Assembly: GCF_044647545.1 (NCBI RefSeq)
Contig: NZ_CP172818.1
Strand: one strand, 5' to 3'
DNA: 64,000 nt
Source of the DNA: Escherichia coli
Lineage (GTDB): Bacteria; Pseudomonadota; Gammaproteobacteria; Enterobacterales; Enterobacteriaceae
Every line of letters begins with the position of its first letter. Positions within the stretch are counted from its first letter, which is position 1. Of the stretch, positions 627 through 3,690 are shown piece by piece. The translations under genes and the position numbers were made by a program. Under the pieces are notes generated by a model. The model did no database searches, was not told the DNA's origin, and saw nothing but the letters and a program-made list of their open reading frames with translations.

Positions 627-2063
627 TCAGCGTTTGTAACCCCCGCCCAGCGCACCGGTGAGTTGAATGGAGGCATCCAGCCACTGCCCTTGCAATAACA
701 AGCCATTGGCCCGCTCACGCAGCGCGGGGATTCTGGCTTCGCTGACGCGGGAACCAGCAATGATGCCCGCGTTAAAGCGCGCCTGCGCAAGACCTACCAC
801 ACGCAAGGCATCGTGCTCAATTTGCGCCTGATGCTGGTTTTTCTCCGCCAGTGTCTGAACCTGGCTGGCCGCCCGCGCCACGTCATTCACCGCTTCAACC
901 ACCGCTTTGTTGTAGCTGGCGATAGACAAGTTGCTTTCGGCTTTTGCGATATCGAGGTTGGCGTTAAGACGACCACTATCGAAAATGGGTAGCGTCAGGC
1001 CTGCCGTAACGCCCATTTGCTGCGCGGAATGACGGAACAGATCGCTTAAGTGCAACGCATCCTGTTGCAGGAAGGCCATCAGGTTGATGTCAGGATAAAA
1101 TGCCGCTTTTGCCGCATCAATGGTGCTTAGCGATGACTCAACGTACCAGTGCGCCGCCTGCAAATCTGCCCGCCGCGCCAGTAAGGAGTACCCCAGTTCA
1201 TCAGGAAGCTGGCTTGCCACTTTCGGCAACGCGACCGGATTAAGCTTCAATGCCTTTGTCTGGTGATTTGTAAGTGCGCTTAACCGTGCCTCAATAATTT
1301 TCATTTTCCCCGCGACATCGTTGAGCTGCTGCCGGGTTTTGCTGGCATTAATATCGGTTTCCACACCTTCAACTGAAGAAGTAATCCCGTTCTGATATAG
1401 CTGGCGATCGGTGGCGATAATGGTGTTCTGCTCTTTTTCGATTTGCTGCAAGACCGTGTTTAACGCCGCCTGGGTTTGCCACTCCCAGTACAGGCGGGCT
1501 ACGCTGCCAGCCAGCAATTGGCGGGTTTGCTCGCGTTCCGCCACCCGTGCTTTAACCGTACCCAGGCGAGCAGTTACCTCCGCCCGATTCTTTCCCCAGA
1601 TATCGAGATGCCAGCCCGCCGTTAAGCCAAAAGTACCGTTGGTGTACCACGGACCGGTCGTACCTGCGGCAGGATCGTTCAAAGCAAACGGCCCCATTAA
1701 CCCTTCTGCCGACATTTTTTGCCGCTCCATATCCGCAGAAAAGTCGAGCTGTGGACCATCCTGAGTGGCAACTGCCTTCGCCTGGGCTTCAGCCAGCTGA
1801 ATGCGCTGTTCAGCCACCTGCATATCCGGTGCGTTCTGTAGTGCGTTATTAATTAATGAGGTGAGTTGATTATCGTGATACTCCAGCCACCATTGGCTGT
1901 CTGGCCAACCATTTTTCAGCGCCGTGGGTAATGCGGTGTCAACTTGTGCCGCGGGTGTTTGCTGGCTTAACGCCTGGCGGGTTTCATGCATAGGCGCACA
2001 CCCGGCTAGCATCAGTAACAGCGGAAAACAGGCGATGGCTGGATAAAAAGAATCACGATTCAT
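627..2063 (-). CDS. mdtQ: TolC/OprM-family outer membrane efflux lipoprotein MdtQ; uninterrupted ORF here
   Basis: Track ORF 627..2153; internal start chosen at MNRDSFYPAIACFPLLLMLAGC (lipoprotein signal with lipobox LAGC), giving 478 aa; ends GALGGGYKR. Confidence 0.85.
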   Translation of the reverse strand: MNRDSFYPAIACFPLLLMLAGCAPMHETRQALSQQTPAAQVDTALPTALKNGWPDSQWWLEYHDNQLTSLINNALQNAPDMQVAEQRIQLAEAQAKAVATQDGPQLDFSADMERQKMSAEGLMGPFALNDPAAGTTGPWYTNGTFGLTAGWHLDIWGKNRAEVTARLGTVKARVAEREQTRQLLAGSVARLYWEWQTQAALNTVLQQIEKEQNTIIATDRQLYQNGITSSVEGVETDINASKTRQQLNDVAGKMKIIEARLSALTNHQTKALKLNPVALPKVASQLPDELGYSLLARRADLQAAHWYVESSLSTIDAAKAAFYPDINLMAFLQQDALHLSDLFRHSAQQMGVTAGLTLPIFDSGRLNANLDIAKAESNLSIASYNKAVVEAVNDVARAASQVQTLAEKNQHQAQIEHDALRVVGLAQARFNAGIIAGSRVSEARIPALRERANGLLLQGQWLDASIQLTGALGGGYKR

Positions 2064-2286
2064 GGGGGAATAATCAGGTAAGAAAAGGTGCGCGGAGATT
2101 ACCGTGTGTTGCGATATATTTTTTAGTTTCGCGTGGCAATACATCAGTGGCAATAAAACGACATATCCAGAAAAATATACACTAAGCGAATGATATCTTC
2201 CGATTTATCTTAATCGTTTATGAATAGCGGCAAAGGGCTTCGTTTTTTCCTATACTTATTCAGCACTCACAAATAAAGGAACGCCA

Positions 2287-2370
2287 ATGAAAATTATACT
2301 CTGGGCTGTATTGATTATTTTCCTGATTGGGCTACTGGTGGTGACTGGCGTATTTAAGATGATATTTTAA
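2287..2370 (+). CDS. yohP: Small membrane protein YohP (27 aa)
   Basis: ATG at 2287, translation MKIILWAVLIIFLIGLLVVTGVFKMIF, stop TAA at 2368-2370; single hydrophobic helix; not in the ORF track because below its size cutoff. Confidence 0.8.
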   Translation: MKIILWAVLIIFLIGLLVVTGVFKMIF

Positions 2371-2742
2371 AATTAATTAATGTCATCAGGTCCGAAAATA
2401 ACGAGAATATTTCAGTCTCTCATCCTGTTGCGCTCCTGTCATGTGCATTGCTTCATATAATCACTGGCGCAAGGAGCGCGCAGGGGGCGGCCAATCGCCG
2501 CCGCCCCCTGCACCCCCGGGCTCTGGCGAACAAAATCGCCGCTGCGCGGTGCCCTCGGCTTATCCCTTACGGCTACCGGGTCGGGCGCGAGGTAACATCC
2601 CTGTAAAACGCGCCCTCAGCCCACATCCATGTGGGCTGCCCCGGCCTTCAGGGAACGCCTCGGCAATTTTGACGCCACCAAACAACCGTGCGGCCTATTG
2701 ATAAAGAGCTAACACATTGTCAAAAAACATCACTATGGTTTT

Positions 2743-3690
2743 TTAGAGTTTATCGATATCAATTGCCTGAATAGCCCTTGCAATATCAGGGGAATTATTC
2801 AACATCCGAACATGCTGAAATAATTCTGTTGCTTCATCGTATTCTTTACGCAAATAACTCAACCACTGTTTAATCCGCGCTACGTGATATAACCCGGTAT
2901 CGCCCTGCTTTTCCAGACGGGTATATTTTTGCAGCAAAGCAACTACCTCCGGCCATGGCATTCGCGGTTCGTTATATTTTACCACCCGGCTCAGGTTGGG
3001 AATATTGAGCGCCCCGCGACCAATCATCACTGCGTCGCATCCGCTGATCGTCATGCATTGTTGCGCACTCTGCCAGTCCCAGATTTCACCGTTGGCAATC
3101 ACCGGAATATTCAGCCGCTGGCGAATCTCGCCAATCGCCTGCCAGTCAATATGCTCCGCGCGGTAACCCTGCTCTTTTGTCCGCCCATGTACTACCAGCT
3201 CCGTAGCGCCAGCCTGTTGCACCGCATCGGCGATTTCAAATTTCTTCTCACCGCTGTCCCAGCCCAGACGCACTTTTACGCTGACGGGCAAATGCGCCGG
3301 TACAGCTTCGCGCATCGCTTTTGCACCCTGATAGATGAGTTCAGGATCTTTGAGTAACGTCGCCCCACCGCCGCTACCGTTAACCGTTTTCGACGGGCAG
3401 CCGCAATTGAGATCCACGCCCCAGGAACCTAACTCGACCGCACGGGCGGCATTCTCTGCCAGCCATTGTGGGAACTGACCTAACAACTGCACGCGCACCA
3501 GCGTACCAGATGGTGTCCGGCTGGCGTTTTGTAGCTCAGGGCAAATGCGATGAAAGACTTTTACCGGCAGCAGTTGATCCACCACGCGGACAAACTCGGT
3601 GATGCACAGATCGTAGTCGTTAACTTCGGTCAGTAATTCCCGCACCAGAGAGTCAAGTACACCCTCCATCGGAGCCAGTAACACACGCAT
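2743..3690 (-). CDS. dusC: tRNA-dihydrouridine synthase C
   Basis: Track ORF 2743..3756 trimmed to [13 protein letters not shown] start, giving 315 aa; Dus family TIM-barrel signature. Confidence 0.92.

Follow-up and report, generated by a model that had tools for sequence, protein, structure and literature searches.

The intergenic segment between yohP and dusC of Escherichia coli differs strikingly in composition and symmetry from the sequences that surround it, which raises the question of what kind of element it is. In the stretch of 64,000 nucleotides analysed here (contig NZ_CP172818.1 of assembly GCF_044647545.1; hereafter the window), the GC fraction reaches 0.65-0.70 over positions 2450-2650 (100-nt windows) as compared with 0.33-0.43 in the flanks. 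This GC-rich stretch had been reported in a first-pass annotation together with three inverted repeats, all of which were recovered, with arms at 2480-2491/2500-2511 (12 bp, perfect), 2583-2589/2609-2615 (7 bp) and 2617-2626/2629-2638 (10 bp). The extent proposed at that stage, 2470-2700, covers the GC-rich folding segment but misplaces its left edge, the true start being at 2427, about 45 nt further left, while the list of repeats was correct for the three hairpins but missed the long-range helices 2531-2539/2663-2671, 2557-2561/2655-2659 and 2576-2580/2640-2644. A coding reading was rejected: neither the 86-aa ORF at 2441-2701, which had already been taken for a translation artefact, nor a 41-aa minus-strand ORF has a Pfam match, and related copies differ by indels of 1-2 nt, which are not multiples of a triplet.

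Comparison with K-12 MG1655 and with the published repeats of E. coli indicates that the segment is very probably RRS-dusC (TRIP1c), one of the two Replication Risk Sequences (RRS) of this species, in which a folded lagging-strand template would leave a programmed gap. The window is identical to MG1655 at 380 of 381 positions between 2380 and 2760 (99.7%), the sole mismatch, at 2752, being outside the element, and the locus order mdtQ, yohP, element, dusC, yohJK, cdd is that of MG1655, orientation included. Like the published RRS-dusC, the element is located between yohP and dusC, downstream of dusC (yohI). Its main features are the following:

2427..2699, unstranded: whole element, TRIP1c = RRS-dusC, which maps to NC_000913.3 2229122-2229394 (Li et al. 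2024, PMC10888264)
2462..2684, unstranded: near-perfect core common to the copies at dusC and lysO, called the '222 bp RRS' by Pham et al.; probable extent
2498..2517, minus strand: published G-quadruplex (G4) motif GGGGGTGCAGGGGGCGGCGG, an exact match that is unique in the window; motif from PMC11194060

Alignment of copies to one another places the boundaries of the element at approximately 2426-2693, in agreement with the published extent of TRIP1c. The K-12 lysO copy is 94% identical to the element over 272 bp (dif lies outside the 64-kb window of the present strain), and the K-12 dusC and lysO copies show only three differences (2558, 2665 and 2680) within 2462-2684 and many outside it; this interval is taken here as the '222 bp RRS' because the length of the span fits the published 222 bp. 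The GC skew of the plus strand is negative throughout the window, which, together with co-linearity with the MG1655 top strand at 2.229 Mb, argues that the minus strand is the lagging-strand template. With respect to the neighbouring genes, the mdtQ frame is intact in the window (508-aa ORF, 627-2153, minus strand) as opposed to a pseudogene in the MG1655 annotation, so that the strain is distinct from MG1655 in spite of an identical RRS-dusC.

The element is thus real, remarkable, already known and mechanistically studied. According to PMC10888264 and PMC11194060, the TRIP1 repeat was first listed, as a separate family, by Rudd in 1999, and TRIP1a and TRIP1c correspond to RRS-lysO and to RRS-dusC, which Pham, Wood, Cox and Goodman termed 'Replication Risk Sequences' (PMC10287960, PMC11194060) and which have been the subject of two papers by Pham et al. 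(NAR 2023, PMC10287960; 2024, PMC11194060) and of a preprint by Kusi-Appauh et al. (2026, PMC13308219). The RRS literature describes a second, nearly identical and inverted copy near lysO, each copy being situated about 650 kb from dif. It has been demonstrated by ssGap-seq that lagging-strand peaks of RecA and SSB start at each RRS, trail for about 1.4-2.5 kb and disappear upon deletion of the RRS (PMC10287960). Synthesis in vitro by Pol I, II and IV is arrested at the G4 strand, which also slows Pol III on M13, ectopic RRS copies generate new gaps, and at least one RRS is required, a double deletion being viable only with a 200-kb amplification or with other or inverted RRS copies; furthermore, the genome-wide supercoiling map obtained by Psora-seq changes when both RRS are deleted or inverted (PMC11194060). 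Single-molecule work has shown that, with the G4 strand as lagging template, nearly every encounter leads to a gap, as compared with about 66% of encounters with the C strand in that position, from which it was concluded that the complementary strand also folds and forms a weaker block (PMC13308219).

As these studies have shown, the lagging-strand template (here the G-rich minus strand), once exposed by unwinding at the fork, folds into a very stable structure through the G-quadruplex motif and several hairpins; the folded element blocks the lagging-strand polymerase, and re-priming downstream leaves a single-strand gap that is transient, measures about 0.3-2 kb and is loaded with SSB and RecA. 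The authors of the RRS studies hypothesize that such gaps serve as valves for topological relief close to the Ter macrodomain borders. The finding at this locus consequently amounts to the rediscovery, from raw sequence alone, of one of the two E. coli elements for which work published between 2023 and 2026 has established programmed post-replication gaps and an influence on chromosome topology, and the window element differs nowhere from RRS-dusC/TRIP1c, with which it shares sequence, locus, G4 motif and strand relative to replication. The published account stresses the 222-bp core and the G4, and the comparative fold, the wider family and the Rfam link described below are additions made here.

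The first-pass annotation had reasoned that membership of a multi-copy, known repeat family would make the segment a routine repeat; the family turned out to be both multi-copy and known, but it is not routine. A megablast search of 5,426 complete E. coli genomes with 2440-2710 found 17,785 places, distributed over 5,425 of them, with a median of 3 per genome (range 1-8). Copies other than that at dusC are located at lysO-aqpZ (K-12), at sstT-alx and at putP-efeU, the last being internally deleted with only its ends kept. In the published nomenclature, TRIP1a is the lysO-aqpZ copy, TRIP1b the partial putP copy, TRIP1d the alx-sstT copy and TRIP1e the copA-ybaP copy, and large inversions between TRIP1 copies have been reported (PMC10888264).

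Comparison of strains at yohP-dusC, a check that had been proposed at the outset, revealed that the element is present there in either orientation. It is oppositely oriented in EC958 and other strains, as is the lysO-aqpZ copy in another strain. An 801-bp query recovered the orientation of the window in 3,315 complete E. coli genomes, while most of the remaining genomes (about 2,100) match only through both flanks, 819 bp apart, a pattern expected of an inverted allele; judged by these matches, the dusC copy would be inverted in about 40% of complete E. coli genomes. Published counts are 3448 forward and 1255 reverse for TRIP1a, and 2952 forward and 2789 reverse for TRIP1c, that is, 2789 of 5741 in the opposite orientation (PMC10888264). 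A simple in-place inversion at yohP-dusC was rejected, given that the immediate intergenic flanks differ between the two alleles. No empty yohP-dusC site was encountered among 40 records sampled down the match ranking. An inverted dusC copy places the G4 on the leading-strand template, an orientation in which no gap peak was observed in vivo (PMC11194060), and the frequency of this natural inverted allele sits uneasily with a strict need for the G4 on the lagging template.

The element is predicted to fold stably on either strand. As single-stranded DNA, the 273-nt element has a folding energy of -79.9 kcal/mol on the minus strand (z = -5.9) and of -73.7 kcal/mol on the plus strand (z = -5.4), and in neither case was any of 200 shuffles as stable. 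A comparative model was built from 83 distinct full-length copies belonging to at least eight enterobacterial genera. RNAalifold predicted 44 pairs from this alignment, 24 of which show compensatory changes, and an extra long-range helix was added from column-pair counts, resulting in nine helices and 53 pairs. These are, in window coordinates:

2431..2478, unstranded: helix P1, arms 2431-2437 / 2472-2478, which closes a variable loop of about 34 nt; 3 of 7 pairs covary
2480..2511, unstranded: helix P2, a 12-bp perfect hairpin with arms 2480-2491 / 2500-2511; compensatory changes at 8 of 10 counted pairs
2531..2671, unstranded: long-range helix P3, 2531-2539 / 2663-2671, which encloses the core domain; 4 of 9 pairs covary
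2540-2542 / 2546-2548, unstranded: small hairpin P3a, within P3; 2 of 3 pairs covary
2557..2659, unstranded: long-range helix P7, 2557-2561 / 2655-2659; 3 of 4 pairs covary
2576..2644, unstranded: helix P4, 2576-2580 / 2640-2644, which closes a two-hairpin junction; 98.6% of cells paired
2583..2615, unstranded: hairpin P5, outer stem 2583-2586/2612-2615 (extends to the 7-bp arms); from the inverted repeat and the alignment
2595-2597/2602-2604: inner stem of P5, loop TCCC
2617..2638, unstranded: hairpin P6, a 22-bp palindrome with loop CATCCATG; 6 of 8 pairs covary

Across the family, 97.3% of 4,372 cells are paired, as compared with 84.0% in shuffles (none of 500 being as high) and 35-45% in slid controls, and double changes were recorded at 28 of the 53 pairs (571 cells in the 83 copies). 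For example, one pair of P7 is GC in 39 copies, AT in 23 and CG in 18, and the arms of P1 read GCGCTCC/GGAGCGC in Escherichia and Klebsiella versus CGTTCAC/GTGAACG in Citrobacter and Enterobacter. While the stems covary, the TCC/GGA hairpin loops are conserved, although this invariance is partly a matter of ascertainment: the pattern used in the genome scan fixed CATCCATG, CCCGGCCT, GG and AAC and left the stems free, so that the columns of the P6 loop and of the P4 3' arm were fixed from the start, and the high pairing of P4 is to be read accordingly. With this qualification, loop conservation is a point against a pure model in which any stable fold blocks the polymerase, as such a model does not need conserved loops. 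Taken together, the alignment suggests that a nine-helix intramolecular fold, readable on either strand, has been maintained by selection across Enterobacteriaceae.

The pairs themselves provide an indication of the molecule in which this fold may have been selected. Strict Watson-Crick pairs make up 4125 of the 4372 cells; the plus strand contains 130 G.T cells, nearly all of them at helix ends, and only 21 wobble-type cells are found inside helices (2 G.T versus 19 A.C in the plus-strand reading). Such a scarcity of wobble pairs would fit a fold selected in DNA and would be unusual for an RNA family. A structure that appears equally readable on both strands would likewise fit the 2026 result that both strands block synthesis. 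Assignment of a strand from the wobble pairs was tried and abandoned, since the end cells (130 G.T) and the interior cells (2 versus 19) lean in opposite directions; the RNAalifold energies (-66.1 for the minus strand, -58.6 for the plus strand) slightly favour the minus strand but do not decide the matter.

The fold and the G-quadruplex behave differently across the family. On the G-rich strand, nearly all copies of the Escherichia, Klebsiella, Kluyvera and Pseudocitrobacter types reach their G4Hunter maximum at the published site, with values of 1.76-1.92, and those of the Citrobacter, Enterobacter and Silvania types mostly score 0.9-1.2. A G4Hunter score of at least 1.5 on this strand is attained by 43 of the 83 copies, and a canonical motif of four G3+ tracts is present in two of them, while the hairpin fold is kept in every aligned copy. 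These scores suggest that roughly half of the family, while retaining the fold, has not conserved the G4 motif.

The family itself extends well beyond E. coli. A pattern scan covering one genome per bacterial or archaeal species returned 76 loci, which belong to Escherichia, Klebsiella, Citrobacter, Enterobacter, Kluyvera, Pseudocitrobacter, Silvania and Leclercia, in addition to a few probable contaminants; the latter are copies on tiny or low-coverage contigs labelled as Bacillus sp., a Sporobacter MAG and a Proteobacteria MAG, as well as a copy at the end of a Desulfacinum MAG contig (L082, L054, L026 and L022), and they probably reflect contamination or mis-binning. A profile search of the collected loci gave 126 matches. 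One Klebsiella pneumoniae chromosome among the 'plasmid' matches that were inspected carries the element at 13 places that do not form a symmetric pair, a number far above the 'pair plus a few' of the RRS description. In one K. pneumoniae locus, two direct copies (L013 2461-2729 and 2898-3166; 437 bp from start to start) lie between pcaC and a gene for a mechanosensitive channel. The suggestion that the segment might be a remnant of foreign DNA finds no favour in these distributions, as the element occupies its locus in essentially all E. coli, its relatives reside on chromosomes of Enterobacteriaceae and phage sequences contain no match.

In Citrobacter, Kluyvera, Pseudocitrobacter, Leclercia and some Enterobacter, copies are arranged tail to tail, mostly with spacers of 36-92 bp and once with a spacer of 171 bp. 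In the eight Citrobacter loci in which both members are full length, every pair consists of one a-type and one b-type copy; partners share 63-70% identity, and copies of the same type share 86-98% between loci. It may be inferred that, for forks arriving from either side, an adjacent inverted pair presents one G-rich strand on the lagging template. The sign of the local GC skew revealed no orientation bias among 37 solo copies (15 negative, 22 positive), although flanks of 3-15 kb make this a weak test; by the same weak measure on short flanks, solo copies of Klebsiella mostly show positive local skew, opposite to the K-12 arrangement. Citrobacter a-type copies (L015 2360-2480; left flanks of L044, L083, L085 and L018) contain GGAGG and, after 8 nt, ATG with an ORF of about 22 codons, the stop codon of which is inside the P1 3' arm. 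Interpretation of these copies as encoding a small leader ORF was rejected, as the ORF is not conserved in E. coli or Klebsiella.

An Rfam scan of positions 2000-3000, with E values up to 10, yielded one meaningful family, TwoAYGGAY (RF01731), on the minus strand at 2534-2685 (30.9 bits, E 0.012), where the gathering score of 43 is not reached; matches to AgvB, miRNA and snoRNA families were attributed to chance, among them a weak plus-strand AgvB match at 2393-2453 that overlaps the start of the element (22.9 bits against a gathering score of 56). Diverged relatives in Pseudocitrobacter and Kluyvera pass the TwoAYGGAY gathering score with 49.2 bits (L027:2218-2281 and L086:4104-4167). Each of these is an inverted copy beside an E. 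coli-like one, and nhmmer found these regions to be homologous to almost the entire length of the family profile. TwoAYGGAY, described by Weinberg et al. (2010), resembles the element in having a closing stem and two hairpins with AYGGAY loops, which correspond to P4, P5 and P6 on the minus strand; here, P4 encloses the loops AUGGAU (P6) and AGGGAU (P5), the second position of the latter being G instead of Y. On this comparison, the two-hairpin core would be the reverse complement of TwoAYGGAY, the copy in the window being itself below threshold. TwoAYGGAY differs in that it is filed as RNA with a model of 168 positions, whereas the enterobacterial element measures about 270 nt, possesses six further helices and has experimental support for a role at the level of DNA.

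This resemblance raises the possibility that the element acts as RNA, a minus-strand transcript of TwoAYGGAY type binding a CsrA dimer and functioning as a sponge or as a dusC 3'-UTR element. Such a role would accord with the presence of two GGA-containing minus-strand hairpin loops 28 nt apart, with the sub-threshold match in the window and with the diverged partners that pass the gathering score. The minus-strand loops ACAUGGAUGU and ACAGGGAUGU are, moreover, close to the SELEX consensus of CsrA, RUACARGGAUGU. TwoAYGGAY is an orphan motif that has itself been proposed to be a CsrA-binding RNA (PMC4333381). Nevertheless, neither strand has a promoter-like or terminator-like site beside the element, the orientation of which relative to neighbouring genes is free in E. 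coli, and the interiors of its helices are nearly devoid of wobble pairs. In addition, neither dusC nor ybjE/lysO shows a CsrA CLIP-seq peak, co-purification or changed expression in a csrA mutant in the table of Potts et al. (2017), whose calls are associated with genes, so that reads derived from repeats may have been lost, and the published replication phenotypes were reproduced in vitro, on M13 and plasmid DNA, without transcription. On balance, action as RNA seems very unlikely, and of the earlier proposal of a structured non-coding RNA the structure has stood, with strong covariation, while the RNA has not, because published experiments place the function at single-stranded DNA and wobble pairs are few. 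As regards a self-contained sRNA gene, this candidate was rejected on the basis that no sigma-70-like promoter or intrinsic terminator adjoins the element in the window or at three paired loci.

Another explanation would regard the family as a non-autonomous mobile element (MITE-like or mobilised as ssDNA), whose hairpins serve transposition and whose effects on replication are a by-product. The number of copies ranges between 1 and 8 among E. coli genomes and rises to 13 places in Klebsiella, where a tandem copy also occurs, sequence types are genus-specific, and both yohP-dusC and lysO-aqpZ harbour either orientation with differing immediate flanks, all of which could be expected of a mobile sequence, as could the putP-efeU copy of which the ends alone are retained and the alx-sstT site that holds different repeats in different strains. 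Evidence against mobility comes from the copy ends, which display neither terminal inverted repeats nor target duplications in the copy alignment, and from the absence of a transposase between or beside copies at the loci seen. Phage matches are likewise missing, and the 'plasmid' matches that were inspected sit among chromosomal genes, some of the records being chromosome-sized. It is also difficult to reconcile mobility with the fact that 99% of E. coli copies are found at five fixed loci (PMC10888264), with the lack of an empty site in the sampled yohP-dusC records and with the cellular role that has been demonstrated for the dusC and lysO copies (PMC11194060). This explanation is accordingly considered extremely improbable, and the reading of the segment as RRS-dusC is retained.

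Among other known systems, the pilE G-quadruplex of Neisseria gonorrhoeae is the only other bacterial case in which a folded G4 has been reported to produce a programmed gap or nick (PMC11194060, PMC13308219). According to the literature, it differs from the RRS in being a 16-nt motif that depends on a cis sRNA transcript and functions in pilin antigenic variation, and in having neither a multi-helix fold nor sequence similarity to RRS. The REP/BIME, ERIC/IRU, box C and RSA repeats are, like the element, GC-rich, palindromic, intergenic and multi-copy, but by their descriptions they are set apart by shorter units (about 35-150 bp versus 273 bp) and by another consensus, and the 273-bp unit has been listed as a family of its own, TRIP1 (PMC10888264). 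The first-pass annotation had already recorded that the segment does not follow the REP/PU consensus. The initial suggestion of a different intergenic repeat family was therefore well founded, the family being TRIP1/RRS and, on these descriptions, not box C, RSA or REP.

What the present analysis may add to the RRS account consists of a covarying fold, the non-conservation of the G4, conserved loops, the TwoAYGGAY link, two-subtype pairs and a frequent inverted allele, all of which are offered as leads and not as proofs; no mention of Rfam, CsrA or covariation was found in the main RRS paper. Tentatively, and as one possibility among others, selection may keep the nine-helix single-strand fold with its conserved TCC/GGA loops rather than the G4, in which case TwoAYGGAY may represent the same kind of element seen on its G-rich strand. 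If this were true, the loops would be recognised by a trans-acting factor or engaged in a tertiary contact, RRS-like programmed-gap elements, or a partner that binds their loops, would extend to the TwoAYGGAY members of Clostridiales and gut metagenomes, and the adjacent inverted two-subtype pairs of Citrobacter would make the element independent of orientation. The comparative results could guide the construction of mutants that separate G4 from fold and stems from loops, as well as the search for RRS-like elements beyond enterobacteria.

In the K-12 cloning strain E. coli TOP10 (NZ_CP080620.1; locus L001, 2944-3212; cf. L004 and L005), the lysO copy starts at the equivalent of window position 2479 and adjoins yghO instead of aqpZ, which places a rearrangement junction at the left end of the element; in MG1655, IS5 lies beside yghO. 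The alx-sstT site of K-12 (L011 3547-3944 versus L006 2232-2846) is filled by a different palindromic repeat, cccctcgcccc...ggggagagggttagggtgagggg, where other strains carry TRIP1d. The same palindromic repeat also occurs directly upstream of RRS-family copies in Enterobacter, Silvania and Leclercia, the loci that carry it at their left flank being L024, L031, L036, L040, L048, L050, L052, L060-L062, L081 and L092.
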